Below, one piece after another: positions 1,157-60,701 of a DNA stretch of 64,000 bases (position 1 is the first letter of the stretch; each line of letters begins with the position of its first letter). Made by a program: the position numbers and the translations under genes. This stretch comes from Dictyostelium discoideum. Its lineage: Eukaryota. The stretch lies in NCBI GenBank assembly GCA_000004695.1, contig CM000151.3:8000001-8064000 (forward strand), given 5' to 3'. The notes below the pieces were generated by a model that saw nothing but the letters and a program-made list of their open reading frames with translations, was not told the origin of the DNA and ran no database searches.

Positions 1157-3005
1157 TTATTCTTGACCTTCTGGAACTGAAGAACCTCTCATACCTTTAC
1201 CAGCTTTAATAATTTCATCGATGAGGAGTAATTGAGAAGCGATAACAGGTGAAGAACGATAAACTTGTTTTAATACAGAATATTGATCGAAAATACCTTC
1301 ACTTACTGGATCCATTGGTTCACCTGATTCAACATCTAAACCGACGATATGACCCTTGGCGTATTCCTCTTGTAATTTAATGATGGTATCCATTGGATCG
1401 AAACCAGAGTTTTGAGCCAAAGTTTTTGGAACTACCAAAAGAGCATCGGCGAATGCTTGAATACCCAATTTGGTACGACCAGTGATAGTTTCTTTGAATT
1501 TCATTAAATCAGCATAAGCGGCGATTTGGAAAGCACCACCACCTGGTACAACACATTTATCTTCGATTGTGTTCTTAACGGCACGTAAACCGTCACGAAG
1601 GGCGTCTTTAATTTGTTCGATTTGATGCTTGGTTGGACCTTTAATTAAAACGGTACAAGAGAATGGATTCTTTACACCCTCAACAAATGTATATTTCTCT
1701 TCACCCAAGGTTTGTTCATAAACTAAATCTGCATGACCTAAACAATCTGGTGTTAAATCTTCCAATGAATTCATTGCTGTACCACCACATGCCAATGTTA
1801 AACGCTCCATATTTCTACGTTTGGCACGACGTAAACCCATTATACCTGCTTTTGCTAACATATCCAAACAAATTGGATCAATACCTTTTTGATTGATAAC
1901 AACGAAATTCTTATCTGGTGTATCACAAACATGATTCTTTAACTCTATAATTTGTCTACATTTTGCTGCAACTAATTTATGTTCACCATCAATCATTCTT
2001 GATCTAGTTTCATGATCTTTATATAAAAAGTTTGCATTAACTTCACTTTTTTTTTTTAAAAAAAAAAATAAAAAGTATTAGTAATGTTTATGTAGTATGT
2101 ATGTGTGTGTTTTTAATATTAATAATTGATTAAATATAAATATGTATAACATACGTTTTTTCATATTCTAAAGAAACATTACAAGTTAAAATGAAACAAT
2201 TTGTTAATTTCTTTGGCATATCAGGATGACGTGTACCATGATCTAAAACCAAACCTTTGATTAATGAACAATGACCATCGGTTCTATGTTGCATAGTCAT
2301 AATTTCAACCATGAATAAATCTAATGGTTGTTCAGGTTTATGAATTAATAAGAGAGCATCAACGACTTGTTCAGTTAATTGATCAGCTAAATCTGCTGGT
2401 AATTTAGTTCTTAATGATGTTTTTGCAATTGAAATCAATAATTCTCTATCCAATGTATCTTGTGAGGTTTGTTTGAATTCCTCTAAAAATGCTAAACAAC
2501 GATCTTTTGCTAATTCAAAACCTTCTGCAATAATTCTTGGATGAATATTCTCTTGTAAATAACGTTCTGATTGTTTTAATAATTCACCAATTGTAATAAC
2601 ATTAGTTGTTGTACCATCACCAGTAATATCATCTTGTGCTGTTGCTGTACGTGCAATTAATGCTGCTGTTGGATGTTGAATTTGCTTTTTTTTAAAAAAA
2701 AAAAATAAAAAAATAAAAATAATAAATAAATAAATAATATTAATATTAAATTTTTTTTTTTTTTTTTTTTTTTTTTTATATATTAAATTTTTAAAATAAC
2801 ATACCATTTCATGTAATAAAACTTTACCATCTTTAGTTAATTTAATATCACCACCACCACCAACTAACATTTTGAGTGTACCTCTTGGTCCTAAATTGGT
2901 TTTTAAGACATTTTGTAAACCTTTACCTGCTGAAATATTGAGCAACAATGCTTGACCTCTTCTAGAGTCTGCTGCTGCTCCTTGTTGTTTAATCATACTC
3001 AACAT
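1157..3005 (-). CDS. cct6: T-complex protein 1 subunit zeta (CCT6 chaperonin); join(3005..2805,2694..2155,2045..1157)
   Basis: The translation aligns along its full length with CCT-zeta: [45 protein letters not shown] | [26 protein letters not shown] ... [13 protein letters not shown] | [28 protein letters not shown] ... [11 protein letters not shown]. Intron 1 (2804..2695) runs gtat...ag. Intron 2 (2154..2046) runs gtatgt...ag and is phase 2. Total about 542 aa. Confidence 0.9.
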
Positions 3006-3420
3006 TTTCGTATATTTCTTTCTTTAGTTTATTGATTTAAACTTTAATACAAACAAATTGGTTCTGTTTTGTTTTTTAGAATTAAAGAAAAAGATCCAAA
3101 TAGTTTGGTTTTTTTTTTTTTTTTTTTTAAAAATAAATTTTCGCTCTCTTTGAAAAAAAAAATTGAAAAAAAAAAAAAAAAAAAAAATTTTGAAAAAATG
3201 GCCAAAAAATAAAAAAAAAAAAAAAAAATGAAAATTTTATTACTTTGAATTTCATTGCCCTTCCAAACATGGGTGAAAAAAAAAAAAAATAAAAATAAAA
3301 ATAGGAAAAAATAATATAAAAAAAAATAAAAAAAGGAAAAAATAAGATACACAATAATATAAAAAAACTGTAGTTCAGATTACTTTTTTTTTACTATTTT
3401 TATTTATTATTTTTATTTAT

Positions 3421-3460
<40 letters not shown>

Positions 3461-4047
3461 TTTTTTTTTAAAAGAAAGTAATTGATATTTACAAGAATCA
3501 AAACTATTTTACATTAATTCAAAAAAGGGATATAAAAATTTTGCTTCGCTATATGTAGTCTCAACCTAATTTAAATATTTTCATATCTCAAAAATTTGGT
3601 AGTAAAAAAAAAAAAAAAAAAAACCCACCTAATTGATAAAAAAGTAAAAAAAAAAATAAATAAACTAATAAATAACTTTACACCAAAATCTCTTTTCAAA
3701 TTATAAGAATCCCCTTAAATCAAAAATGTAATATATACACCAAATCCATCAACCACACTAAAACACAAACCACAAAAAAAAAAGTTTTACTTGGGGTTTT
3801 GGCACGTGACTTTTGTCAATAAAGGAAAATTAAAATAAAATATTTTGATTTTTTACCACTAAAATTTTTATATATTTGTATTTTTTTGAGAAAAGAAAAA
3901 AAAAAAAAAATTGATTAGAAAAAATAAAAAAAAAAAGTGTGTGTTTGTGTGTGGTTTAAATCACACATTGAAATTTACATATCACAAAATAAAAAGATAT
4001 TTCTTGTTGTTACTTGATTGGTTTTAATCAATAAATTTTTTTTTTTT

Positions 4048-8206: not shown

Positions 8207-10029
8207 ATGGTTGGATTTGAAGATCATATCGCAGCTATCACAAGAAACTATCAAGTTAACCCACGTTTAGATTATAGAACTGTTACAGCAGTAAATGGTC
8301 CACTCGTTATTTTAGATAATATCAGAGGTCCAAAATTCTCTGAAATTGTAACTTTAACTTTAGGTGATGGTACTCAAAGAAAAGGTCAAGTTTTGGAAAT
8401 CCAAGGTAAAAGAGCTGTTGTACAAGTATGTATTTAATTAATTTTAAAAAAAAAAAATAATAATATAATTTTTTTAAAAAAAAAAAAAAAAAAACCACAG
8501 ATTTTTTTATTTTTTTTAAATTTTACTTTTTACTTCTTTCTTATTTTTCATTTTATTATTTTTTATTTTTAATTTTAATGAATTAATTTACTAATAAATT
8601 TTTTTTTTTTTTTTTTTTTTTATTTTTTAAAAAAAAAATCAAAAAGGTTTTCGAAGGTACAATTGGTATTGATGCCAAACACACTCGTTGTGAATTCTCT
8701 GGTGATATTTTAAAGATGCCAGTATCAGAAGATTCATTAGGTCGTATTTTCAATGGTTCAGGTAAACCAGTTGATAAAGGTCCAAATGTTTTAGCTGAAG
8801 AATACTTAGATATTCAAGGTCAACCAATCAATCCATCAGTTAGAGTTTACCCACAAGAAATGATTCAAACTGGTATCTCTGCTATTGATACTATGAATTC
8901 AATTGCTCGTGGTCAAAAGATTCCAATTTTCTCTGCTGCAGGTTTACCACACAATGAAGTAAGTATAATAAAAATTATATACACAATCATACATGCATAT
9001 ATATAAAATCGCAAATAATAAAAATTAATTTATTAATTTAATTTTTATTTATTTATTTTTTTTTTTTTTTAATAATAGATTGCCGCTCAAATTTGTCGTC
9101 AAGCTGGTTTAGTTAAAAAATCAGGTAAAGGTGTTATTGATGATCATGAAGATAATTTTGCTATTGTATTCGCAGCTATGGGTGTTAATATGGAAACTGC
9201 ATCATTTTTCAAACGTGATTTCGAAGAATCAGGTTCTATGGATAGAACTGCTCTCTTCCTTAATTTAGCAGATCATCCAACCATCGAACGTATTATTACT
9301 CCACGTCTTGCATTGACCACCGCCGAATATCTTGCATATCAATGTGAAAAACACGTTTTAGTTCTTTTAACCGATATGTCTTCATATGCTGATGCTCTTC
9401 GTGAGGTATCTGCTGCTCGTGAAGAAGTACCAGGTCGTCGTGGTTATCCAGGTTATATGTATACAGATCTTTCAACCATTTACGAACGTGCTGGTCGTAT
9501 TCAAGGTCGTAATGGTTCTATCACTCAAATTCCAATTTTGACTATGCCAAATGATGATATTACCCATCCAATTCCAGATTTAACTGGTTACATTACTGAA
9601 GGTCAAATTTTCATTGATCGTCAAATCAATAACAGACAAATCTACCCACCAATCAATGTATTACCATCACTTTCTCGTCTTATGAAATCCGCCATTGGTG
9701 ACGACATGACCCGTGGCGATCACTCTGAAGTCTCAAATCAAATGTATGCCAACTATGCCATCGGTAAAGATGTCCAAGCTATGAAAGCTGTCGTTGGTGA
9801 GGAAGCACTTTCTTCTGAAGATAAACTCTACTTAGAATTTTTAGAACGTTTCGAATCTAGCTTTGTCGGTCAAAACCATTATGAAAATCGTGATATCTTT
9901 AATTCATTGGATCTTGGTTGGTCTTTATTAAGAACTTTCCCAAGCAATCTCCTCAAACGTATCACTGAAAAAACTATTAAACAATACTATTCACGTTCAT
10001 CAAAGGGTACTGTAGATTCAACTAACTAA
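8207..10029 (+). CDS. vatB: V-type proton ATPase subunit B; join(8207..8425,8647..8958,9079..10029)
   Basis: Unmistakable V-ATPase B sequence: ...RAVVQV | [45 protein letters not shown]...AAGLPHNE | [12 protein letters not shown]...[57 protein letters not shown]...[12 protein letters not shown]. Donors are gtatgt at 8426 and gtaagt at 8959. Acceptors are ...aaaaag at 8645-8646 and ...aataatag at 9077-9078. Total 493 aa. C-ending codon bias typical of a highly expressed gene. Confidence 0.92.
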
Positions 10030-27685: not shown

Positions 27686-30600
27686 ATGACAAGTTCTGAT
27701 AGTAGTGTAAATACTACATCGAGTAGTTTCGGAAATATTTCAATATCATCACCAAATCATAGTAGTTCAACACCACCTTTAAATAATGGAAATGGTAATA
27801 ATGTTAGTGCATCAGAAACTGAATTAAAGAAACATGTTTTATACTCTTTACAATGTTTAGATGAAAAAACTTTAACTTTAAAAGTGAAATTGGATCATTT
27901 AAATAAACTAGTAGAATTAAAGAAATCAATACCAGATTTAAATAAATTAGGAATATCACCAACACAATTATATAAAAGGTAATTTAATTTTAAAATTTAA
28001 TTAATTAATTAATTATTATAAATTTATAAACTAATCATCATTTTTTTTTTTTATTTTTTTTATTTATTTTAGTGTAAGACCATTTATAGCATTACCACCA
28101 AAAACAATTAGAACAGCAGGATTAAGAGTAATGAGATATTATTTAAGTAATTCAAATAATGTTAAAGAATTATTAGATTTAAAAGTACAATATTTTATAA
28201 CACGTTCATTGGAACGTGATAAACATTCAGAACCTGAAAGAATTCAAGCATTAAAAATCATACGTACAATTATGGAAATTGATTGTTCATTAATGCCACA
28301 TTGCTTTGTGAAAGGTTTAGTATCAATTGCAGAGAATCAAGAGGATAATTTCTGTAGAGTTTGTCTTGAATGTCTAACAGAGATCTCAATTCGTAATCCA
28401 CAAATTTCATCACATTGTGGTGGTATTCGTACTGTTTTCGATGCGGTTTTGGATCCATTCTATCAAGGTATTCAAGAATCCCTTTTAATTTGTATATTAT
28501 ATTTATTAAGTGATAAAGATACTAGAATTTATATTAGACCAAAATCTGATTTAGAAGTAAGTTGATTTTTTAAAATAAAATAAAATAAAAAAACAAAAAC
28601 AAAAATTCCAATTATTAACATATATTATTTTAAATAATATCAATAAAGATTATATTAGCACCATTAACAAATTCATTTAATATTGGTGTTAAATTAAAAG
28701 GTGCAAGTAAAGAAAAAGAAAAAGAAAAAGAAAAAGAAGATGAAGTTGCAATGAAAAAATGGACAGCAAGTTCAAAAGCTGTTTTAACATTAATTAAAAG
28801 TTGGATTGGTATTATATCTTTAAATTCTGATGATCAAGGTTTAAAATCTGTAGTTGATACATTAAGAATGCCACAAATTGAATTACAAGTAAGTTTTTTA
28901 TTACAATTTATTTATTTTTATTTATTTATTTATATATTAATTTTTATTTCTTTAAAGGAAAAAGCTTTAGATTCAATTTTTGAAATTTTTAGAGTACAAT
29001 TACCAAAAAGTATTCAAGAAACATTTGGACCACAAAAAGCAACACAAACATTTAATTTTGGATCAGAGACATTACAAGATTTACCAAGTAGAACTAGATC
29101 ATTAAGACATAATCTATTGAATAATTATTTATCGGTATTGTTGATAGCATTTATTGATAATGGACTAATTGAGGGATTGGTTTATTTGGGTAATTATGTT
29201 GCCAATAGGGATGGTATGAGTGAGCAAGAGAAAGAATGTTCAAAGAATATCTCATTAAAGAGTACAGTATTATTGGCGGAACTATTACATATGTCAAATG
29301 CATTATTACCACCATCACAATGTGCAAAATTACAAACACTACCATCATTGGTGAATTCTGCAATTTCGTTTAGATTAGACCCAAGATTAAGATCATCTTC
29401 AAATACCATGGTAACCAATTTACATAGTTATTCACATAACAAATCAAGTACAACCCTAATGGATAGCACATTGGCAATTGGATTAACTGGTGCCAATAAA
29501 TGGCGTCGTATTAAAGGTCAAGATCGTAGATTGGATAAGGTTGATGATGTGAAAATGAAGATGGAGTGGCATATGGACGATAACCAATTTCAACAGAAAA
29601 TCAAGGACACTCAAGTACTCGTCACTAAAGATTACCAAAAATGGTCATGGGAATTAATGTTTGAATTGTTGGAAGGACCTTTGAACAATCCTCAACATTT
29701 ATCAAATACATTGAAAACCAAATTCATTAAAAGAATCTTATCATTTCTACGTCCAAATAAGAAACTATTCTCAACAATGGCTTGGACAACTGAAAATTTA
29801 AAATATGTTCGTACTGCTTGTGTAGCATTGGAAGTTTTAATCTCTCATGAAATTGGTTTCGATTTTCTTAAAGATAATAAAACTATAATTCAAATCGCCG
29901 ATATGTTAAAAGTGGAATTAGATTATAATATTAAACCACCACCATCATCATCCTCATCATCAGAAAATAAAAAAGATAATGTACGTTTATTGAATCCAGA
30001 AAAAGTTTTAAAAACAATGTCTCGTGAATACTTTACAATGTTGGGTACATTGAGTAGTAATTTATTAGGTTTGGAAATATTAGCACGTAATAACATTTTC
30101 GATTATATTAAACCATTGGCTGAATTGCCTGGTAGGGATGATCTTTCTCATTTAATTATGACAAGCTTGGATTACAATGTTAATGGTGCCTCCAGAACGA
30201 TTCTTCAAAAGATTTTAACTTCAAGTTCAAGAGTAGTACGTTATTTGGCAACCAAGTATTTAAGATTCCTTTTAAGATCTGGTGTACAAGATTTCTCAAA
30301 TTGGGGTGTAGAGTTATTAGTTCAACAATTGAATGATGTGGATGCAAAAGTTAGTGCACTATCATTGAATGTATTGGATGAGGCATGTGATGATCCATCA
30401 TGTTTGGAAGTTTTAATAGATTTGAAACCAAATCTATTGAAATTGGGTAAACCTGGTAAATCATTGTTATTACGTTTCTTATCCTCTCCAAAAGGTTTAG
30501 AGAATCTATTACAAAATAATGGTTTCGTTGAACAAGAAGAACAACTATGGATTACAAGTGAAAATGCAACCTATGTAAATGCAATAGAATCGGCAGTCTC

Positions 30601-31387
30601 TGAATCATTATCACCAAGTGTTTGGAGATTTAAAGAAGCACCTGATGGTAGTAGTACTAGTGGTGTCTATTTACCACCACATTTCTTTGGTGAATTAGCA
30701 AAAACTGAAAAAGGTTGTCAATTAATTAGAAAATCAAATAACTATCAAAGATTTTTAAAAATCATTCAAGATCCAACCGCTAAACAATTGGATAAAAGAG
30801 CATCGTTAATCGCAATTGGTCATATTGGTTCTTCTGTCGATGGTTATTCATTCGTTAAAGAAAGTGATACAATCAAACTATTGATTGGAATAGCAGAGAA
30901 ATCTCAATGTTTGGCATTACGTAGTACTTGTTTCTATGCTTTGGGTATGATTTCATGTATTGAAGAAGCTCAACCAATCTTTAATTCCTTTGGTTGGGAA
31001 TCACCATCAGATTTAAACTCTAGAATCTTGTTACCAAAGGATTTAAAGAATTCAACTTTCCTAAGTGTACCACAATATCAATATCAAGGTAGTTGGGCTG
31101 ATCATTCATTTGAAACTTTACCATCAAATCATTTCTCTGATCCAATTAAAAATGAAATCATTTCTTTTGTTGGTAATTTATCTTCACATATCACTGCTGA
31201 AGGTGCTTCAAAGAATTTAAAACGTTTAAAAATCAAATATCCTGATCATTTTGCAACAAGTGAAATTTTAAATGCAGTTTTCATTTTATTAAATACTTTT
31301 AAATATCGTTTAGGTGCTAGAAGATTCATTTATGATTTATTTGATGTTGCAATATTTTCATCTGATCCATATCATGATTTAAATTAA
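27686..31387 (+). CDS. piaA: Rictor homologue (TORC2 subunit Pianissimo); join(27686..27978,28073..28556,28649..28879,28952..31387)
   Basis: Aligns with Rictor: VRPFIALPPKTIRTAGLRVMRYYLSNSNNVKELLDLKVQYFITRSLER matches VRAAGLRALRYLIQDSSILQKVLKLKVDYLIARCID. WGVELLVQQLNDVDAKVSALSLNVLDEACDDPSCLEVLIDLKPNLLKLGKPGKSLLLRFLSSPKG matches WGIELLVTQLHDKNKTISSEALDILDEACEDKANL...LLLLRFLSIPKG. Donors are gtaatt at 27979 (phase 2), gtaagt at 28557 and gtaagt at 28880. Acceptors are at 28071-72, 28647-48 and 28950-51. Summed CDS is 3444 nt, 1147 aa plus stop, close to the roughly 1148 aa recalled for PiaA. Confidence 0.85.
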
Positions 31388-32834: not shown

Positions 32835-33990
32835 AATTATTACTAATATATTTATTAATATATTTATTATTTATTTTAATATTTTATAGGAAGGATTTGA
32901 TCATGTTACATTTTGGGTTGGTAATGCATTACAAGCAGCAACTTATTACATTGCTAGATTTGGATTTCAAAATTTAGCTTATAGTGGTTTAGAAACTGGT
33001 AATCGTCAATTCGCCACTCATGTTATCCATCAAAACAACATTATTATGGCTTTTACATCACCATTAACTGGTGACAACAAAGATTATGCAGACCACATGA
33101 TGAGACATGGTGATGGTGTCAAAGATATTGCTTTCAACGTTAAAGATGTACAACACATTTATGATGAAGCAGTTAAAGCAGGAGCTCAATCAGTTAAAGA
33201 ACCACATCAAATTAAAGACGAACATGGTATTGTTACATTAGCAACTATCATGAGTCCATATGGTGAAACTACACATACTTTTGTTGATAGATCTCAATAT
33301 AAAGGTGCATTCTTACCAGGTTTCACATACAAGGTCGCTTCAGATCCATTATCAAATATCACCGAACCAGTTGGCCTCAACTTAATAGATCATGTCGTTT
33401 CAAATCATGCAGATAAAATGATGGAACCAGTCGTTCAATGGTACGAAAAGGTTTTACAATTCCACCGTTTCTGGTCAGTTGATGACAAAACCATTCATAC
33501 CGAATATTCATCATTAAGATCAGTCGTAGTTGCTGATAAGTCTGAAAAAGTTAAATTACCAATTAATGAACCAGCCAATGGTATTAGAAAGAGTCAAATT
33601 CAAGAATACGTAGATTTCTACAATGGTGCTGGTGTTCAACATATCGCCTTAAAGACTGATAACATCATTGATGCTATCTCAAAATTAAGATCTCGTGGTG
33701 TCTCTTTCCTCACTGTTCCAAAAACATACTATACATCACTCAGAGAGAAATTACAACACTCTTCATTAGAAATTAAAGAAGATTTGGACACTTTAGAGAA
33801 ATTACACATTTTAATCGATTATGATGACAAAGGTTATCTTTTACAAATCTTTACAAATAATGTTGAAGATAAACCAACTGTTTTCTTTGAAATTATCCAA
33901 AGAAACAACCATGATGGTTTCGGTGCTGGTAACTTTAAATCCCTCTTTGAAGCAATCGAAAGACAACAAGAAACTCGTGGAAACTTATAG
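32217..33990 (+). CDS. hpd: 4-hydroxyphenylpyruvate dioxygenase; join(32217..32219,32890..33990)
   Basis: Exon 2 aligns along its full length with 4HPPD: EGFDHVTFWVGNALQAATYYIARFGFQNLAYSGLETGNRQFATHVI ... HGDGVKDIAFNV ... LQFHRFWSVDDKTIHTEYSSLRSVVVA ... QIQEYVDFYNGAGVQHIALKTDNI ... LLQIFT ... IQRNNHDGFGAGNFKSLFEAIE. The in-frame ORF is open upstream to an acceptor tatag at 32888-89. The only upstream ATG in splice context is aaacaATG|gtaagt at 32217, so exon 1 is just ATG (phase 0). The model gives 367 codons, consistent with the family length. Confidence 0.75.
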
Positions 33991-34297: not shown

Positions 34298-35225
34298 TTA
34301 TAATAATTTAATGAAATCAAATGTTTGAACATCGTTAGTATTGGTTACAGATTTGAAAGTGATAACGATATTACCAGATTCAAATGACCATGACCAATGA
34401 GCGTTCAAGTTAGCATCATGTTTAATGACGATTGTATGATTTGTAGTTGCTTCTTGAACTGCTTCTAAGATCATTTCATCAGCACAACGTTTGGCAAGAT
34501 TAGCAGCGACCTTTTCGACGATACCAGCAAAGATATGACCAAAACTATTCTTTAAATCATCTGCAACTTTTGGATAAACAGTTTCTAATGATGATTCATC
34601 AATTGACCAATCTGATGATGATTTTAATGCTTTTTTAACTGCTGATAAATTATCTTTCATTTTTTGTTCATTTGTTTTAATATTTAAACGAGTCATTAAA
34701 GTATAAACACCTTGAGTTGGAATAATAGTCTCTAATTTGAATGTGTTAACATCATTTGTGTTACAAATCTTTGGACGGAATAAAACTCTACAATCACCAT
34801 TCTCAAATTGATATTTCCAATAGGATTCCAACTTTTCATCAGCACAAACAAAAACGAATTTCTTATTTGGAACAGCTGCTAAAAATGCTTCTTTAATTAA
34901 TGGATCTGCACCGACTTTTACCATATTCTTTGCAAGATTACCAACTACATCTTTGTAAAAGATACTTCCACAACTATTAGTAACCCATGAATCATTACAT
35001 TTAGTAATAATATCTTCAAAATCAAATTCAATTGAAAATGGTTCACCTAATGATTTTTCGATTGATGCTAAATTAGTTTTTAAAGATTCTTCATTATCTT
35101 TTAATGATTTTCTATAAATATTATAAATTTAATTATTAATTAATATTTATATTAATTATTAAATGGAATATAATTATTATTATTTTTATTATTTATATTT
35201 ACCTTGAGGTTAAGGCGAGAGGCAT
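34298..35225 (-). CDS. uncharacterised two-domain protein family, copy A (278 aa); join(35225..35203,35111..34298)
   Basis: Exon 1 is ATGCCTCTCGCCTTAACCTCAAG|gtaaat. Exon 2 follows the acceptor tatttatag and begins A AAA TCA TTA AAA GAT... Protein MPLALTSRKSLKDNEESLKTNLASIEKSLGEPFSIEFDFEDIITKCNDSW...TNTNDVQTFDFIKLL. Copy-specific residues DPLIKE, CRVLF, IIPTQG. Confidence 0.8.
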
Positions 35226-36178: not shown

Positions 36179-37106
36179 TTATAATAATTTAATGAAATCA
36201 AATGTTTGAACATCGTTAGTATTGGTTACAGATTTGAAAGTGATAACGATATTACCAGATTCAAATGACCATGACCAATGAGCATTCAAGTTAGCATCAT
36301 GTTTAATTACGATTGTATGATTTGTAGTTGCTTCTTGAACTGCTTCTAAGATCATTTCATCAGCACAACGTTTGGCGAGATTTGCAGCGACCTTTTCGAC
36401 GATACCAGCAAAGATATGACCAAAACTATTCTTTAAGTCGTCAGCAACTTTTGGATAAACAGTTTCTAATGATGATTCATCAATTGACCAATCTGATGAT
36501 GATTTTAATGCTTTTTTAACTGCTGATAAATTATCTTTCATTTTTTGTTCATTTGTTTTAATATTTAAACGAGTCATTAAAGTATAAACACCTTGAGATG
36601 GAATGATTGTTTCTAATTTGAATGTGTTAACATCATTTGTGTTACAAATCTTTGGACGGAATAAAATTCTACAATCACCATTCTCAAATTGATATTTCCA
36701 ATAGGATTCCAACTTTTCATCAGCACAAACAAAAACGAATTTCTTATTTGGAACAGCTGCTAAAAATGCTTCTTTAACTAATGAATCTGCACCGACTTTT
36801 ACCATATTCTTTGCAAGATTACCAACTACATCTTTATAAAAGATACTTCCACAACTATTAGTAACCCATGAATCGTTACATTTAGTAATAATATCTTCAA
36901 AATCAAATTCAATTGAAAATGGTTCACCCAATGATTTTTCGATTGATGCTAAATTAGTTTTTAAAGATTCTTCATTATCTTTTAATGATTTTCTAAAAAT
37001 AAAATAAAATAAATTATTAATTAAAATTTATATTAATTATTAAATGAAGCATTATTATTATTATTTTTATTATTTATATTTACCTTGAGGTTAAGGCGAG
37101 AGGCAT
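36179..37106 (-). CDS. uncharacterised two-domain protein family, copy B; join(37106..37084,36992..36179)
   Basis: Same two-exon structure as copy A (exon 1 is 23 nt, donor gtaaat at 37083, acceptor ttttag at 36994-93). Residues DSLVKE, CRILF, IIPSQG. Confidence 0.8.
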
Positions 37107-39643: not shown

Positions 39644-42189
39644 TTATCTAATTAATTCAATTAAAGAATTTTGTTGAAATTTACCAAAATTTCTAGCATA
39701 ATTATCTAATTCTCTAATCAATAATGGTGAATTAATTCTAATTTTTTTTAAAGTTTCATTTTTTGTATTTAAAATTTTAAATAAATCGAAATCGATTTGA
39801 CTAATAGTATCCATACAAATTCTTTTTAATCTTTTAACCATGAAACCATCGGCAACTTGCATTAGAATACAAATATTATCAAATGAAGTTAAAGTTTCTT
39901 CAAAATTTAAAATATCTTCTTTCTTTAATTTTTGTTGATTTCCATCGATGTTATTTGTTGTTTTTGGAACATTTTTTAATAAAATTTCATTATTTGATAA
40001 AACCATTTGTTCCAAATGATATTCACAAAGATATTTTAAATCTTCAATCATGAATCTATCAGCCAAACAAAGTATATCTATAGCATTATCATCATTGATA
40101 ATCTCTTCATTATTACCATAGATATATTGAAGTAATAGTTTGAAAGTTTCTTTGGAAGAGATATCATTTTCATCTTTACCACTTACAATGAATTCCATTT
40201 GATCCTTCTCTTTGAATGAACATTCAAACATTGTTTTAAAATAAAGATTTCTTTGAGTTAAAATGAATTTATGAGCGTAAATTGAAGAGGTATCAGATTC
40301 TTTGATTTTGAATGAAATATCAGCTTTGGTTAATTCATCAACTGCTTGAATTAATTGTTTACTAAATTCTGAAGGTGGTATTTTCTCGGTGAGTCTTAAT
40401 CTATAGGTATAACGTTTACAAATGGCTGATAATCTTTCAATTCCCATCTTTTCAGCATATTTACCCAATTCAATTCTTAAATGTGGTGCAATCACTAAAT
40501 GATCAGTATATAAATATTGTAAAAAACCAATGAAAATTTGATATTTAACTGAATTGCCTAAATCAATAATTTTAATTTCTTCACCATTTTCATTAAATTC
40601 TTTTTCTTCTTCTTTTTCTTCTTCTTTTTCTTCCTTAGCCACAACAACTTGTTTATTATTTGAATATTGATTAATAAATCTTGATGAAAATAAAATTATT
40701 GAATATAATTTTTGGCAACGTGATTTTATAAATAATGAATGAGAATAAATTTTCTTATCTTGAACTTTAAATATTAAATCTGCATACTTCTTTTCATTAA
40801 TTAATGATTTATAATCATAAGCAAATGAAGTTACATCGGAACATCTTACAACGATTGTATGTTTTTCACCGGCTGTGATCGATGCAATTTCTTCACCAGA
40901 TAGAGAAGTGATTAATTGTGGTACCAATTGAAATCTTTTATTACCTAAACCCAATGCACCAGAACTACCCCAACCCCATTGATAAACTTCATTCTCATCA
41001 GTTACAACGATTGTATGTAAATGACCACATGCTACATTTTTAATTTTTTTAGTTTCTAATGATTTAACCACTATTGGTATTGAATATTTGAAATGATTAT
41101 CTCTTCCACCGAAATCCAAATGTTGAGTTTCTTCTGTGCTACCCAATTGACCATATTCTCCATGACCAAATGCATACAATAGACCTTGGACGCTTCTAAC
41201 CATAGTGAAATTGGAACCACATGCAACTTGAGCTATTCTTTCATTTAATTCTACAAACTGTTGAATTTTCTTTGGATGAAGGTAACTCTTTACATTACCA
41301 TGACCCAATTGACCGAAAACACCAAGTCCCCAACTATAAACTTCACCTTGATCGGTGATGGCACAAATATGTTGACGACCACATACAACACTAACAATGT
41401 TCACATCGATTAATGTTTTCACCAATTGTGGTGTAGAATGAAACCAACGATTACCTAAACCCAATTGACCCTTTTCATTGAATCCCCATGTATATAAACG
41501 ACCAGATTTAGTAACGGCTGCACTAAATGCCCAACCACCACTCACATCTACCACTTCCTCTGGTATATCTTGAATTTGCATTGGAATGGTTTGATTTAAA
41601 TCAATGATTTTACCCAAATGCTTACTCTTTGATTGTGCACTATTGGATGCTTCCTTATCTTCATCATCATCCTTTGGTTTTGTACCACCATTGGCATCGT
41701 ATGCCTTCTTTTCACCCGATAGATATTGTGAAACTGATGCCTCTATAATTCTTTGAGATGATAATCTTGGCATTTCAATTAAACCATTGGTTGATTGTAT
41801 ATCCAATGATGATTGTGACTCGTCTAATCGATGTAGTTGACCCCATTCATAAACTTTACCCATATCAGTCAATGCTAAACTATGAAAATTACCACATGCT
41901 ACCTTTATAATTCTTTCATGTTGTAAACTTTTAATCAATGTTGGTTTTGCTACAAACATTACTTTATCACTACCACCATACCCTTGACCAATACCTAATT
42001 GACCTTCTTTTGATCTACCCCATGAATAAACATCTCCAAATCTTGATACAGCCAATGAATGTGCTTCACCTGATACTGTTTGTATAATTCTTTTACCTAA
42101 TAATCCTTCAATAACTGTTGGTTCTAAACATTCTTTAATTGAATCATGTCCTAACTGCCCATTTTTTGATTGTCCAACACTTAAAACTA

Positions 42190-43661: not shown

Positions 43662-45683
43662 ATGAAAGATATTTGGAAATCAGCAAGAAAAGGTGATTTA
43701 GCAAAGATTAAAAAGTATATACCAGGCACAAAATTTAAAGTTGATGAATTAGATAAAGAGAATAGATCAATTCTTCATCATGCGATTGATGGTGACCAAT
43801 TACAAATGGTAAATTATTTATTAGAACAAGGTGCAAATATAAATTTAAAAGATCCTAAATCTGGTGATACTGTATGTATTTAATAATTATAAATAAATAA
43901 AATATATTATTATTATTTTTTTTTTTTTCTAATAGAAAAACATATGTTAATTATTAATTATTATTTTTTATTTATAATTTAGCCAATTTTAATGTCATTA
44001 AAAAAAATTAATGCAATTGATAAACAAGAAGATATTGCAATTTTATTAGTTAATAAAGGTGCAGATTTAGATGTTGAATCAAGAGAGAGAAAGAATGTTG
44101 AAAGATATGTTGATGCATGTCCAAAACGTTTTCAAATAAAGTATAAAGATGCAATTACACAAAAGTTTAAAAATAAATATCCACCAAAGGCAATTGCACC
44201 AGCAAGTCCAGCTACTCAAGTTCTTTTAGCGCAAACTGCAGGTTTACCACCACCTTCACCAAAACCAAATCCACCACCACCACAACAGCAAGAAAACACT
44301 GCTACATCATCAATTATATCAACTGTCGAACCAAGACCATATGTAAATTCAAATGGTGAAACAGTTGTAAGATCAACTAATGAAATGGATTTAATTTTAC
44401 AAGAATCATTGTTAGGTGATGATTTTGATAAAGAACAAGATTTGAATATAATTTGGATGGAAGTTGCATTTAGAGCATCAATCGTTTCCATTAGGTCTGA
44501 GAAAGTTAGATATGACGATATCACCAAAGCCACCGATCAATGTGGTAATATTTTAATACATTTGCTATCAATCATTGGTAATTCAGAGACAACATCGTTC
44601 ATGGAGACTGTAAAGAATCAAGAAGCTGTAAACTCAATTCAAGAACGTGTTAAAAACGTTAAGGAGGGTATCAAACTCCGACTGTTCTCTAGAATTGATC
44701 ATTCTGAATTAATTAGATTAGTTGCAGCTTTAATTGGTTCATTACATTGGATTTACAATTGCTGGTCAGAGGTCCCACAAGACGATATCAATAGATCAAT
44801 TGCCGAATGTGCCTTGTCATGTCGTGTTGCAATGAATTCAGTTACAACTCATACACCATTCCAGTTGGGTGTTTTAACAAATATTGCAAAACTTTTAAAA
44901 AATATTTCAACTAAAGTTTTCATTACTCGTACTCCAGAGGATGCAAAGAAGTTATCAGATTCTTGTTTTGTTATCTCTTCAACTTTTAAATCATTAATGG
45001 TTCTATCGGTAGTGAATGATGTCAAACAAAAATCAGCTGAAAATATCATCTCATTAGGTCGTTCAATCGCCGAACAATTATCAATATTAAAATTACAATC
45101 AACTTCAATCTTACCTTCAAGAGTTGGTCAAAATTTATCATCAAAAGAAGAACGTGAGTTAAATGAATCTGCTTCAAATCAATTACGTTCATCAATTGAT
45201 TATTATATTTCAAATAATAAATCTGATACAACTACTACTACTACAACTACAACTACAACTACAAATAGTGAGAATAATAATATTACAGATTTAATTTCAT
45301 CACCAAAAAGATTACCAAAAGAAGATAAAACATTACCATTATTAGCAAATATTGAAAAATCAATTTCAATGTTAATGGGATTTACAACTGAAGATAGAAA
45401 TATTCAAATGGCAATTCCAGTTCATATGATTGCAAAGGATATTCATGAACTTAGAACTATATTATTAGAATACATTAAAGAACAATCTGATAGTTTATCT
45501 GAAGAATTTAAAGATCAAATTACAAATGCTATCAATTGTTCTGCTCATTTTTCAACTCAACAATTATTCTCTGTATCTGCTTTAATTTGTCATAATAGAA
45601 TTACTGATATCTCACAATTAGGTTATTCTTCTCGTAATATTGCTGCTTGTTGTTGTATTTTAATTGATTCATTCTGTTTTTAA
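43662..45683 (+). CDS. ankyrin-repeat protein with large C-terminal domain of unknown function; join(43662..43871,43983..45683)
   Basis: Exon 1 reads MKDIWKSARKGDLAKIKKYIPGTKFKVDELDKENRSILHHAIDGDQLQMVNYLLEQGANINLKDPKSGDT, then gtatgt at 43872. The acceptor aatttag at 43981-82 leads into PILMSLKKINAIDKQEDIAILLVNKGADLD, an ankyrin GDTP...A...G consensus that spans the junction. About 636 aa. Contains T11 and a Pro-rich linker. Confidence 0.7.
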
Positions 45684-45818: not shown

Positions 45819-45843
45819 TTAATCTCGAAAATGAATTTTTAAG

Positions 45844-45896
<53 letters not shown>

Positions 45897-47222
45897 GAAA
45901 TTATTAAAATTATTAATATTAAAATTATTCTTTAAATTTTTTGATAGTGATAAAAATGTTAATGAAATTGGTAATTTAATTTTTAATAAATTTTCAATTG
46001 AATAATTATTATTTAATATTAAATGAGTTAATGTTGATGGTAATATATTATCTTGATCAAATGGTTGATTAAAATTTATATTTTCTAAAAGGTTAAATAT
46101 TTTTAAACCATTTGGTAATATGTTTGTATCAATTTTTGAATTGAAATAACCAATGATTGAAAATTCAATTAAACTTGTTAAACATTGTAATAATGAACCA
46201 ATATAATAATTTAAATTTAAATTTAATCTTTTACATGTGAATTCAATCAAGTCAAATGCAATTTCAAATTTTTTAATTGAATTACTTGGTGATAGTATAG
46301 ATGGAGTTAATGGTATTTGTAAATCATAAATTTGTAAATTCTCAACTGTTGATGGTATTGAATTTGGTAGAAATTTCATATCTTTTGAATAACATTCTAA
46401 ATTTATTAATGATGGTGGTAGTGATTCATGAGTAATTTCTAATTTATTAGTATTATTATTTTCATTTTCATTTTCATTAATATAATACATCATAGTTAAT
46501 GATTTTACATTTATTGGTATAACATTTTTAACAAGTTTATTACATTTTAAAATCACTTCTAAATTAATTATTGAATTTGGTAATACTGAAATATCAAAAC
46601 CTTCTCTGTAACTATTTAATACTAAATTTTTAATACCATTTGGTATATCACCAATTTTTAAAATTGAATCACCATTATTCCACTCATTTATAAATGTTAT
46701 TGATTCTAATGTACTTGGAAATTTAATTGTATCTTTTGAAATTTTTGGACATTTTAAAAATGTTATTTCTTTAATATTATTTGGAATTAAATAATCATTA
46801 CCTTTACTATAATCAGTTTCATTAATTACAACATTTTTAACTGACTTAATTGTTGATGGTAATAGGAAAAGAGGAGTTGTGGAAACGAGTATGTTATTAT
46901 TAAATGTTAAACTAATTCCAAATTCAATTATTTCAACTCCAAATGGTATTAAACAACTTGCAATATTTGAAATTGATTGTTCTTTAAATACTATTTTATT
47001 TAATACACCATTTTTATTATTTGGTAAAAAACACTTTTCATTTATTGATTCATTACCTTTATATATTAATGTTCTAATATATTCCTTATTTTCATATTCA
47101 ATTAATGATGTTAAATTTAAAAATGTTACAATTTCATTTTTTTCATATAATAATTTAAACTCTAAAATCATTTTTAACAAATAAACATTTCTCCAAACCT
47201 TAAAAAATAATTTATCTTTCAT
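45819..47222 (-). CDS. FNIP-repeat (Dictyostelium-type leucine-rich repeat) protein, 467 aa
   Basis: Continuous ORF. Repeated approximately 22-residue units of the form LP.(S/N/G)I(K/E).L.(F/L)... (IPNNIKEITFLKCP, LPNSIINLEVIL, LPNSIPSTVENLQIY, LPNGLKIFNLLENINFNQPF). Coordinates are taken from the ORF track because of the ±1 local inconsistency noted in this stretch. Confidence 0.7.
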
Positions 47223-47663
47223 TATTTGATTTTTTTTTTTAAGAATTTCAAAAGGAAGAGTTTGAAAAATTCATTATCGATTTCACAAATAATAAAATTT
47301 CAGTCCAATTTTTACAATTAAAATTTTTTATTTATTATTTTTCAATTTTTAGATTAGAGGTAATAAAAATAAAATAAAATAAAATAAAAAAAAAATTAAA
47401 ATTAAAATTAAAAAAAAAAAACAAGATATTTTCATTGGTTAAAAAAAAAAAATATCTTTTTTATTAAAAAAAAAAAAAAAACATTCCAACTACATTCTTA
47501 AAAATAATAATTTTATTTTTTTAAATATTTCCAATTCTAAATCTATTTTATTTCTATTATTATTTTTTTTATTTTATTTTTTATAAGTATAAAATGTAAA
47601 TTTTTTTTTTTTTTTTCCAATCAATTCAACAAACTTTAAACTAATCAATACAATAAATTAAAA

Positions 47664-48590
47664 ATGCCTCTCGCTTTAACTTCAAGGTAAAAAAAAAAAA
47701 AAAAAAAAAATTATAATTCATTTAGTGGTTAATAATTTAAAATTACTAATTTAAATTAAATTTATTTAATTTATAGAAAATCATTAAAAGATAATGAAGA
47801 ATCTTTAAAAACTAATTTAGCATCAATTGAAAAATCATTGGGTGAACCATTTTCAATTGAATTTGATTTTGAAGATATTATTACTAAATGTAATGATTCA
47901 TGGGTTACTAATAGTTGTGGAAGTATCTTTTATAAAGATGTAGTTGGTAATCTTGCAAAGAATATGGTAAAAGTCGGTGCAGATTCATTAATTAAAGAAG
48001 CATTTTTAGCAGCTGTTCCAAATAAGAAATTTGTTTTTGTTTGTGCTGATGAAAAGTTGGAATCCTATTGGAAATATCAATTTGAGAATGGTGATTGTAG
48101 AATTTTATTCCGTCCAAAGATTTGTAACACTAATGATGTTAACACATTCAAATTAGAGACAATCATTCCATCTCAAGGTGTTTATACTTTAATGACTCGT
48201 TTAAATATTAAAACAAATGAACAAAAAATGAAAGATAATTTATCAGCAGTTAAAAAAGCATTAAAATCATCATCAGATTGGTCAATTGATGAATTATCAT
48301 TAGAAACTGTTTATCCAAAAGTTGCCGACGACTTAAAGAATAGCTTTGGTCATATCTTTGCTGGTATCGTCGAAAAGGTCGCTGCAAATCTCGCCAAACG
48401 TTGTGCTGATGAAATGATCTTAGAAGCAGTTCAAGAAGCAACTACAAATCATACAATCGTTATTAAACATGATGCTAACTTGAACGCTCATTGGTCATGG
48501 TCATTTGAATCTGGTAATATCGTTATCACTTTCAAATCTGTAACCAATACTAACGATGTTCAAACATTTGATTTCATTAAATTATTATAA
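47664..48590 (+). CDS. uncharacterised two-domain protein family, copy C; join(47664..47686,47777..48590)
   Basis: Exon 1 ATGCCTCTCGCTTTAACTTCAAG|gtaaaa has synonymous changes relative to the other copies. Acceptor ttatag at 47775-76. Residues DSLIKE, IIPSQG, IDELSLE. Confidence 0.8.
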
Positions 48591-49468: not shown

Positions 49469-49496
49469 ATGCCTCTCGCCTTAACCTCAAGGTAAG

Positions 49497-49527
<31 letters not shown>

Positions 49528-50399
49528 GCTTCATTTAATAATTAATATAAATTTTAATTAATAATTTAATTTATTTTATTTTTAGAAAATCATTAAAAGA
49601 TAATGAAGAATCTTTAAAAACTAATTTAGCATCAATTGAAAAATCATTGGGTGAACCATTTTCAATTGAATTTGATTTTGAAGATATTATTACTAAATGT
49701 AACGATTCATGGGTTACTAATAGTTGTGGAAGTATCTTTTATAAAGATGTAGTTGGTAATCTTGCAAAGAATATGGTAAAAGTCGGTGCAGATTCATTAA
49801 TTAAAGAAGCATTTTTAGCAGCTGTTCCAAATAAGAAATTCGTTTTTGTTTGTGCTGATGAAAAGTTGGAATCCTATTGGAAATATCAATTTGAGAATGG
49901 TGATTGTAGAATTTTATTCCGTCCAAAGATTTGTAACACAAATGATGTTAACACATTCAAATTAGAAACAATCATTCCATCTCAAGGTGTTTATACTTTA
50001 ATGACTCGTTTAAATATTAAAACAAATGAACAAAAAATGAAAGATAATTTATCAGCAGTTAAAAAAGCATTAAAATCATCATCAGATTGGTCAATTGATG
50101 AATCATCATTAGAAACTGTTTATCCAAAAGTTGCTGACGACTTAAAGAATAGTTTTGGTCATATCTTTGCTGGTATCGTCGAAAAGGTCGCTGCAAATCT
50201 CGCCAAACGTTGTGCTGATGAAATGATCTTAGAAGCAGTTCAAGAAGCAACTACAAATCATACAATCGTAATTAAACATGATGCTAACTTGAATGCTCAT
50301 TGGTCATGGTCATTTGAATCTGGTAATATCGTTATCACTTTCAAATCTGTAACCAATACTAACGATGTTCAAACATTTGATTTCATTAAATTATTATAA
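49469..50399 (+). CDS. uncharacterised two-domain protein family, copy D; join(49469..49491,49586..50399)
   Basis: Exon 1 is 23 nt then gtaaga. Acceptor tttag at 49584-85. Residues DSLIKE, IIPSQG, IDESSLE. Confidence 0.8.
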
Positions 50400-51192: not shown

Positions 51193-52121
51193 ATGCCTCT
51201 CGCCTTAACCTCAAGGTAAAAATAAATAATAAAAATAAAAATAATAATAATATTTCATATAAAAATTAATAAAAATTTATTAATAAATAAATTTATTTTA
51301 TTTTTAGAAAATCATTAAAAGATAATGAAGAATCTTTAAAAACTAATTTAGCATCAATCGAAAAATCATTGGGTGAACCATTTTCAATTGAATTTGATTT
51401 TGAAGATATTATTACTAAATGTAACGATTCATGGGTTACTAATAGTTGTGGAAGTATCTTTTACAAAGATGTAGTTGGTAATCTTGCAAAGAATATGGTA
51501 AAAGTCGGTGCAGATCCATTAATTAAAGAAGCATTTTTAGCAGCTGTTCCAAATAAGAAATTTGTTTTTGTTTGTGCTGACGAAAAGTTGGAATCCTATT
51601 GGAAATATCAATTTGAGAATGGTGATTGTAGAATTTTATTCCGTCCAAAGATTTGTAACACAAATGATGTTAACACATTCAAATTAGAAACAATCATTCC
51701 AACTCAAGGTGTTTATACTTTAATGACTCGTTTAAATATTAAAACAAACGAACAAAAAATGAAAGATAATTTATCAGCAGTTAAAAAAGCATTAAAATCA
51801 TCATCAGATTGGTCAATTGATGAATCATCATTAGAAACTGTTTATCCAAAAGTTGCAGATGATTTAAAGAATAGTTTTGGTCATATCTTTGCTGGTATCG
51901 TCGAAAAGGTAGCTGCTAATCTCGCCAAACGTTGTGCTGATGAAATGATCTTAGAAGCAGTTCAAGAAGCAACTACAAATCATACAATCGTCATTAAACA
52001 TGATGCTAACTTGAACGCTCATTGGTCATGGTCATTTGAATCTGGTAATATCGTTATCACTTTCAAATCTGTAACCAATACTAACGATGTTCAAACATTT
52101 GATTTCATTAAATTATTATAA
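51193..52121 (+). CDS. uncharacterised two-domain protein family, copy E; join(51193..51215,51308..52121)
   Basis: Exon 1 is 23 nt then gtaaaa. Acceptor tttttag at 51306-07. Residues DPLIKE, IIPTQG, which match copy A. Confidence 0.8.

Positions 52122-52659: not shown

Positions 52660-60701
<8,042 letters not shown>

Follow-up and report, generated by a model that had tools for sequence, protein, structure and literature searches.

The interval 47664-48590 on the forward strand of the 64,000-nucleotide stretch analysed here (the window; G+C content 22%) contains the two-exon gene DDB_G0277423, located on chromosome 2 of Dictyostelium discoideum AX4 and encoding a protein of 278 amino acids (Table 1). 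The protein deposited for this gene in the public protein collection (DDB_G0277423/Q8MP80) is identical at every residue to the spliced translation of the interval. The locus is already annotated and already present in proteomic tables, and is not a discovery in itself; all databases label the family merely as 'hypothetical'. The predicted product has a mass of 31.3 kDa, is acidic (pI 5.7) and has a GRAVY index of -0.19. It contains neither a transmembrane segment nor a signal peptide (the Kyte-Doolittle maximum over 19 residues does not exceed 1.09, and the N-terminus lacks hydrophobic character). These properties indicate a soluble product that is most likely cytosolic.

The window holds five copies of this gene, named c1 to c5 in Table 1 (the identifiers of the cluster are DDB_G0277415, -417, -421, -423 and -425, of which -423 is c1 and -425 is c2), each encoding 278 amino acids and each interrupted by an intron at the identical position. 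The fivefold amplification that had been claimed from the sequence alone is thus present. Three copies are direct and two are inverted, with 10.5 kb of unrelated genes between the two groups. Neighbouring genes with recognizable Pfam domains are listed in Table 1, while the open reading frame at 43992-45683 (563 amino acids) has no match in Pfam. The intron of c1 carries a run of 22 A just after its GT donor, which is absent from the four other copies.

The coding sequences of the five copies are 97.6-99.8% identical (pairwise differences of 0.24-2.4%). Twenty-seven of 837 coding sites are variable, 22 of them synonymous and 5 nonsynonymous, and the proteins differ from one another by one to four residues. 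Repeat units delimited by blastn are 1.2-1.7 kb long and 87-95% identical. Mean pairwise identity is 0.95-1.00 in exon 2, approximately 0.7-0.85 in the intron, exon 1 and some 180 bp of upstream sequence, and mostly near background beyond; upstream of position 47481 it is approximately 0.3-0.5, save for one 50-column block at 0.67 (47338-47383). This pattern, with 22 synonymous against 5 nonsynonymous sites and exon 2 better conserved than its flanks, fits what purifying selection on a functional protein would be expected to leave.

Of the three direct copies, c1 has diverged most, given this A run, a unique S181L replacement and T for C at several third codon positions. A string quoted for this protein in the earlier, sequence-only reading, DWSIDESSLETVY, belongs to the other four copies; c1 carries DWSIDELSLETVY, with Leu181. 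Copy-specific peptides exist (SSSDWSIDELSLETVYPK in c1 versus SSSDWSIDESSLETVYPK in the other copies), while ICNTNDVNTFK is common to the copies. Copies c2 (+) and c4 (-) also have nearly identical introns, and the near-identity of the two copies, despite their opposite orientations and a distance of 12 kb, suggests a recent duplication, possibly of an inverted block, or gene conversion. Copies c3 and c5 have variants in common (Pro78 and Thr140). The c4-c5 pair may have arisen as a simple inverted duplicate of the c2-c3 block, in view of the variants shared by c2 with c4 and by c3 with c5, but the blastn relationships of the units are mixed.

Tandemly amplified clusters of near-identical copies lying within a few kilobases, with coding sequences much better conserved than their flanks, are known in Dictyostelium for discoidin I and for hssA/2C/7E. 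The cluster described here likewise consists of near-identical copies within a few kilobases, although the DDB_G0277423 product is unrelated to the proteins encoded by those clusters, and the layout of three direct and two inverted copies on either side of unrelated genes is a further difference.

Table 1. Features of DDB_G0277423 (copy c1), its sister copies and neighbouring genes in the window
Feature	Position	Strand	Remarks
Exon 1, copy c1	47664..47686	+	ATG plus 20 bases; MPLALTS(R)
Intron, copy c1	47687..47776	+	90 nt, GT...AG
Exon 2, copy c1	47777..48590	+	ends in TAA stop
Module 1, aa 1-139	47664..48170	+	split by the intron; domain HMM match 1-138, E=6.5e-56; AlphaFold: helices then sheet
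Module 2, aa 140-278	48171..48587	+	domain HMM match 140-278, E=5.4e-51; AlphaFold pLDDT 95.9, pTM 0.89
Motif CNTNDVNTF, aa 124-132	48123..48149	+	includes Asn125
Motif TNTNDVQTF, aa 264-272	48543..48569	+	module 2 counterpart of CNTNDVNTF
Upstream region and 5' leader common to the five copies	47481..47663	+	mean pairwise identity ~0.67-0.84
Copy c1	47664..48590	+	DDB_G0277423
Copy c2	49469..50399	+	DDB_G0277425, 278 aa
Copy c3	51193..52121	+	278 aa
Copy c4	36179..37106	-	278 aa; 2/837 coding nt differ from c2
Copy c5	34298..35225	-	278 aa
CCT chaperonin subunit	1157-1996		Pfam
V-type ATPase A/B subunit	9178-10029		Pfam
Rictor	28751-31387		Pfam
4-hydroxyphenylpyruvate dioxygenase	33046-33990		Pfam
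Cytochrome P450	37641-39302		Pfam; two exons
RCC1-BTB protein	39644-42055		Pfam
FNIP-repeat protein	45819-47222		Pfam
ATG2	52660-60024		Pfam

A tandem pair of modules and its predicted fold

The sequence-only reading described the protein as an internal tandem duplication of a domain of about 120 amino acids. The two halves align with 37% identity and 56% positives over 131 amino acids (E=3e-21; BLASTP of residues 1-142 against residues 143-278), and their Smith-Waterman score of 174 is 28 standard deviations above that of shuffled sequences (mean 29.6, sd 5.0), none of 2000 shuffles scoring as high. The protein is thus a tandem two-domain protein, but the unit is longer than had been proposed. 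A module profile of 138 positions, built from the halves together with single-module homologs, aligns over its full length with residues 1-138 and again with residues 140-278, and therefore the repeat unit is approximately 138 amino acids long (138-139 as measured), has no linker and fills the whole protein. The motif TNTNDV(N/Q)TF, which was said to close each half, occurs as TNTNDVQTF in module 2, whereas module 1 reads CNTNDVNTF.

The module has no counterpart in the domain and structure libraries searched. A Pfam-A scan of the 278-residue protein returned no match. Among 20 distant members Pfam-A gave no match on the module either; what it did identify was a PH domain (in P0051 and in P0112) and, in P0025, P0104 and P0142, bare-threshold matches that lie in repeats or outside the module and have no relation to it. 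When 35 module representatives were scanned singly against Pfam, no family was matched by more than one of them. A sequence search of the PDB found nothing for the protein, and the best hit of the module profile, PsbQ (E=0.07), is not significant. Foldseek against the PDB likewise gave no significant match (best E=0.39).

A two-module AlphaFold2 model, computed from an alignment of eight sequences and covering the exon 2 part of the protein (270 of 278 residues), has a mean pLDDT of 85 and a pTM of 0.64. Modelled alone from a 33-sequence module alignment, module 2 reaches a pLDDT of 95.9 and a pTM of 0.89. As predicted, the module opens with two helices at its N-terminus, followed by one short strand, one short and one long helix, a further helix, three antiparallel strands and, after a (T/S/C)-N loop, two short helices that bear the NTNDV motif. 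DSSP assignments of the AlphaFold model, which place helices before a three-stranded sheet, agree with the helices-then-beta layout that had been read from the sequence of each half.

Across 213 module representatives, the most conserved positions are Gly113 (94%), Asn125 (90%), Gly56 (85%) and Gly30 (83%), and further conservation is found in a K-E-A triplet (approximately 70%) and at an R-K-N-I start (approximately 60%). The module alignment contains no invariant nucleophile, histidine or acid that could belong to a catalytic set; for this reason we infer that the module is non-catalytic. Gly113 and Asn125 are more likely to be structural than catalytic residues.

Distribution and history of the module family

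An exhaustive profile search covering 1.84 billion representative proteins identified 330 relatives at E<=1e-3, including 146 at E<=1e-10, in proteins of approximately 130 to 1116 amino acids. Only seven proteins came from a further, word-indexed search for homologs that used the module profile, and they added little. In a set of 194 sequences, near-complete modules number one in 48 proteins, two in 106, three in 16, four in 8 and five in 10. The sources include the dictyostelids D. discoideum, D. citrinum, D. dimigraforme, D. purpureum and Acytostelium, the Myxogastria Physarum and Echinostelium, the heterolobosean Percolomonas, the chytrid Borealophlyctis, whose protein consists of one module of 143 amino acids, and Ambispora (Glomeromycota). 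Environmental assemblies, with contigs of some 1 kb, supplied many further relatives, and all are labelled 'hypothetical'. The module occurs in amoebae, heteroloboseans and early-diverging fungi, and none was found among the animal, plant and Dikarya proteins in the named samples.

Orthologs of the two-module protein in D. purpureum and Acytostelium are 40-78% identical to it. Module 1 scores 242, 287 and 212 against the first modules of Acytostelium P0024, metagenome P0022 and P0036, respectively, versus 174 against its own module 2; module 2 scores 276, 297 and 253 against its counterparts in the same three proteins, likewise above its score with its own module 1. In a neighbour-joining tree (no bootstrap), the first modules of dictyostelid proteins, including those of the four- and five-module paralogs, form one clade and the later modules another. 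From the cross-species scores and the tree together it follows that the split between first and later modules is older than the divergence of the sampled dictyostelids and older than that of the two- and five-module paralogs.

In the same tree, the modules of one protein cluster together in P0049, P0057, P0064, Ambispora, Percolomonas and Echinostelium. This indicates that tandem multiplication probably took place independently outside the dictyostelids, or that modules there have undergone concerted evolution, a process that within proteins could mimic independent duplications. The duplication seen in DDB_G0277423 is thus ancient and belongs to the history of a widespread module occurring in one to five copies, rather than being private to this gene.

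The only recurrent domain fusion is that of an N-terminal PH domain to three to five modules, found in P0051 and its close relative P0192 from Percolomonas and in P0112 from an environmental assembly; the Percolomonas protein consists of an N-terminal PH domain and five modules. P0112 is less than 50% identical to P0051. The fusion accounts for two of about 150 representatives inspected, and these two may be related to each other.

D. discoideum itself has other, uncharacterised proteins with the same module, namely DDB_G0271254 and DDB_G0281617, with two modules, and DDB_G0290465, with five modules in 695 amino acids. All three start with MPLxL...RKSL, as does c1, and the two-module paralogs are 91-97% identical. 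Compared with the five-copy genes, DDB_G0290465 has three extra modules of the later type. Unlike the five-copy cluster of the window, the paralogs on chromosome 3 (DDB_G0281617 type) are two genes in tandem, each encoding 278 residues, at positions 3001-3906 and 5031-5956 of L002. Since these paralogs are also in tandem, local duplication of the 278-residue gene has occurred at more than one locus.

Codon usage and protein abundance

Codon usage was evaluated against D. discoideum tables that cover all genes, the 1000 genes with the highest expression and the 1000 with the lowest (PMC8321536 Table S3). The codon score is the mean log2 ratio of relative codon frequencies in the high set to those in the low set, and expectations were simulated at the same amino-acid composition. 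The five copies score 0.117-0.136 bits per codon, compared with expected values of -0.063 (sd 0.042) for the genome, 0.172 (sd 0.046) for the top 1000 genes and -0.151 (sd 0.038) for the bottom 1000. Their score is thus approximately 4 sd over the genome expectation and 1 sd under the top-1000 mean. The proportion of codons that end in C, which ranges from 0.108 in c1 to 0.119, is about 1.3-1.45 times the genome expectation (0.082, sd 0.016) and about 2 sd under that for the top 1000 (0.154, sd 0.021). The codon adaptation index with top-1000 weights is 0.79-0.81, above the values of approximately 0.71-0.73 that are expected under all three usage models. Because this index hardly tells the three classes (genome, high and low) apart in an AT-rich genome such as this, the log-likelihood ratio was relied on instead.

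Eight codons had been named as enriched in the coding sequence. Four of them are so in c1, with observed and expected counts of 8 and 2.6 for ATC, 5 and 2.2 for AAC, 3 and 1.0 for CGT, and 3 and 1.5 for GTC. GCC (2 and 2.1), GAC (2 and 1.5) and TTC (4 and 4.6), however, occur at the genome average, ACC is depleted (1 and 2.3), and no TAC, CAC or TGC occurs. The codon signal also comes from the avoidance of ATA and from a deficit of AGT and GTA. Third-position C/T changes account for many of the 22 synonymous differences among the copies, and the C-ending codons are therefore not fixed.

Within the window, the five-copy family ranks fourth of 21 gene classes by codon score. The V-ATPase (0.42), CCT (0.26) and 4-hydroxyphenylpyruvate dioxygenase (HPPD; 0.26) genes score higher, and the other 17 long open reading frames score no more than 0.06. 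Codon usage of the family is moderate and leans to the high-expression class: the bias claimed from the sequence is there, in that it exceeds the genome average, but to call it strong overstates it. The chromosome 3 paralogs have codon scores of approximately 0.01-0.05, and the ortholog of DDB_G0290465 in D. cf. discoideum (L001 1501-3825) has a score of 0.02 and a C-ending share of 0.077.

Three of the five copies are reported in a life-cycle proteome (PMC12821622 supplements). DDB_G0277421 is recorded in vegetative cells only (3.5-3.9e7, log2FC 6.96) and DDB_G0277423 at aggregation only (2.1e7 and 2.9e7, log2FC 6.56; Table S7 of PMC12821622), while DDB_G0277415 is recorded at 2.7e6 in vegetative cells, approximately 1e7 at the aggregation/mound stages, 6-8e6 at culmination and 2e6 in fruiting bodies. 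The top-25 tables of that study list DDB_G0277421 as vegetative-specific and DDB_G0277423 as aggregation-specific. The five proteins differ at so few residues that these 'stage-specific' patterns probably reflect, for the most part, the way in which each run assigned shared peptides among near-identical copies, and thus an artefact of protein inference.

Summed over copies, the family reaches approximately 3.5-4e7 in growth and aggregation and then falls; the values of individual copies depend on the assignment of shared peptides. Clathrin light chain is comparable, with about 3e7 in these data, NUBP1 is at about 5e7, rps27/rps28 at about 2.5e8 and spore-coat proteins at about 4e8 (PMC12821622). 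Family intensities of 1e7-4e7, with shared peptides split among the copies, are 5-10 times below those of the ribosomal and spore-coat proteins. The family is clearly expressed at mid-range abundance and is not top-tier. The earlier description of an abundant cytosolic protein holds for a soluble product that lacks a signal peptide and transmembrane segment and is detected by mass spectrometry, but its abundance is mid-range only.

The five-module paralog DDB_G0290465 reaches 2.2-3.2e8 in vegetative cells (PMC12821622), about ten times the two-module copies combined. This protein is far more abundant despite near-average codon usage, and codon bias is therefore a poor proxy for abundance in this family. 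The sole main-text mention of any gene or UniProt identifier of the family found in the literature is the weak enrichment (5.8-fold) of this paralog in the nucleocytoplasmic table of an anti-O-fucose pull-down. The label 'ser/thr kinase related' that it bears in the pull-down table is supported by nothing in the present analysis. Further omics supplements searched for these genes contained no entries for them.

Alternative explanations and proposed function

Multiple copies in an inverted layout, labelled 'hypothetical' in all databases, could reflect a repeat that is selfish or has no function, for example an array of pseudogenes or the cargo of a transposon. This is next to impossible, given that all five reading frames are intact, the intron position is conserved, synonymous variable sites outnumber nonsynonymous ones by 22 to 5, peptides are detected, and orthologs (40-78% identical) in D. 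purpureum and Acytostelium are accompanied by distant homologs in other phyla. The five copies and the codon bias might instead be those of a bulk, very abundant housekeeping protein of the ribosomal or actin class, for which a codon score 4 sd above the genome expectation and mass-spectrometric detection in both vegetative and aggregating cells can be cited. Such a protein is nevertheless improbable here: intensities of 1e7-4e7 compare poorly with those of rps27/rps28 and the spore-coat proteins in the same data set, the C-ending share is some 2 sd under the top-1000 expectation, three housekeeping genes of the window are clearly more biased, and the five-module paralog attains 2-3e8 with near-average codons.

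Two known folds have to be weighed for the module itself. The sequence-only reading had loosely likened each half to NTF2-like domains. The NTF2-like fold is a cone of about three helices packed on a curved sheet with five or six strands. The order of helices before strands is the only feature that the module has in common with the NTF2-like superfamily; the numbers of helices and strands differ and there is no structural match to NTF2-like proteins, so the predicted model effectively refutes this assignment, which is hardly tenable. The module might otherwise be a HECT C-lobe-like domain that has diverged and either carries or binds ubiquitin, or a protein resembling it, with the cysteine of the C-N-T-N-D loop as a thioester site. 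Some resemblance to the HECT E3 C-lobe (for example, UBR5, PDB 3pt3) exists, but Z is below 8 throughout at 6-7% sequence identity, and the best Foldseek match in the PDB has the E value of 0.39 given above. Only 44 of 213 representatives (21%) have Cys just before the near-invariant Asn; 51 have Thr there and 49 have Ser, and module 2 has Thr. Furthermore, there is no N-lobe or other region, the two modules filling the protein, and no Pfam HECT match. The resemblance does not amount to membership, as the module forms linker-free tandem arrays without a conserved catalytic Cys, and the HECT-like explanation is very unlikely. The weak similarity to the C-lobe still leaves room for a remote enzymatic or ubiquitin-related role.

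The reading we prefer, that of a translated five-copy family of two-module proteins whose module is a non-catalytic binding or scaffold unit, is on the whole rather probable. Its descriptive part, a genuine translated five-copy family of a two-module protein, is very probably correct. Its functional part, a non-catalytic binding or scaffold module with a partner possibly at the phosphoinositide membrane or cortex, is tentative. A binding or scaffold role is favoured by the lack of conserved catalytic residues, by the linker-free concatenation of variable numbers of modules and by the PH fusion, while the recurrence of the PH domain at the N-terminus hints at a partner at the membrane or cortex. 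Against it stand the rarity of the PH fusion and the fact that no partner, ligand, localisation or mutant phenotype came to light. Under the preferred reading, each module would act as a non-catalytic binding or scaffold unit, the number of tandem modules would set valency, the gene copy number would set dose, and the partner may reside at a phosphoinositide-bearing membrane or at the cell cortex. A wider proposal, that this is a new ancient eukaryotic binding domain whose one to five copies tune multivalent attachment to the membrane or cortex, with the dose raised by amplification during growth and early aggregation, is speculative and rather unlikely as a whole.

A practical point is that the published proteome's 'stage-specific' listing of two near-identical copies is probably artefactual. 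What is new is the definition of a compact, confidently foldable module of 138 amino acids without a Pfam or PDB counterpart, present one to five times per protein in several deep eukaryotic lineages. This definition is a sufficient basis for a new domain-family entry, and knockout or localisation work in a tractable organism can be planned from it.
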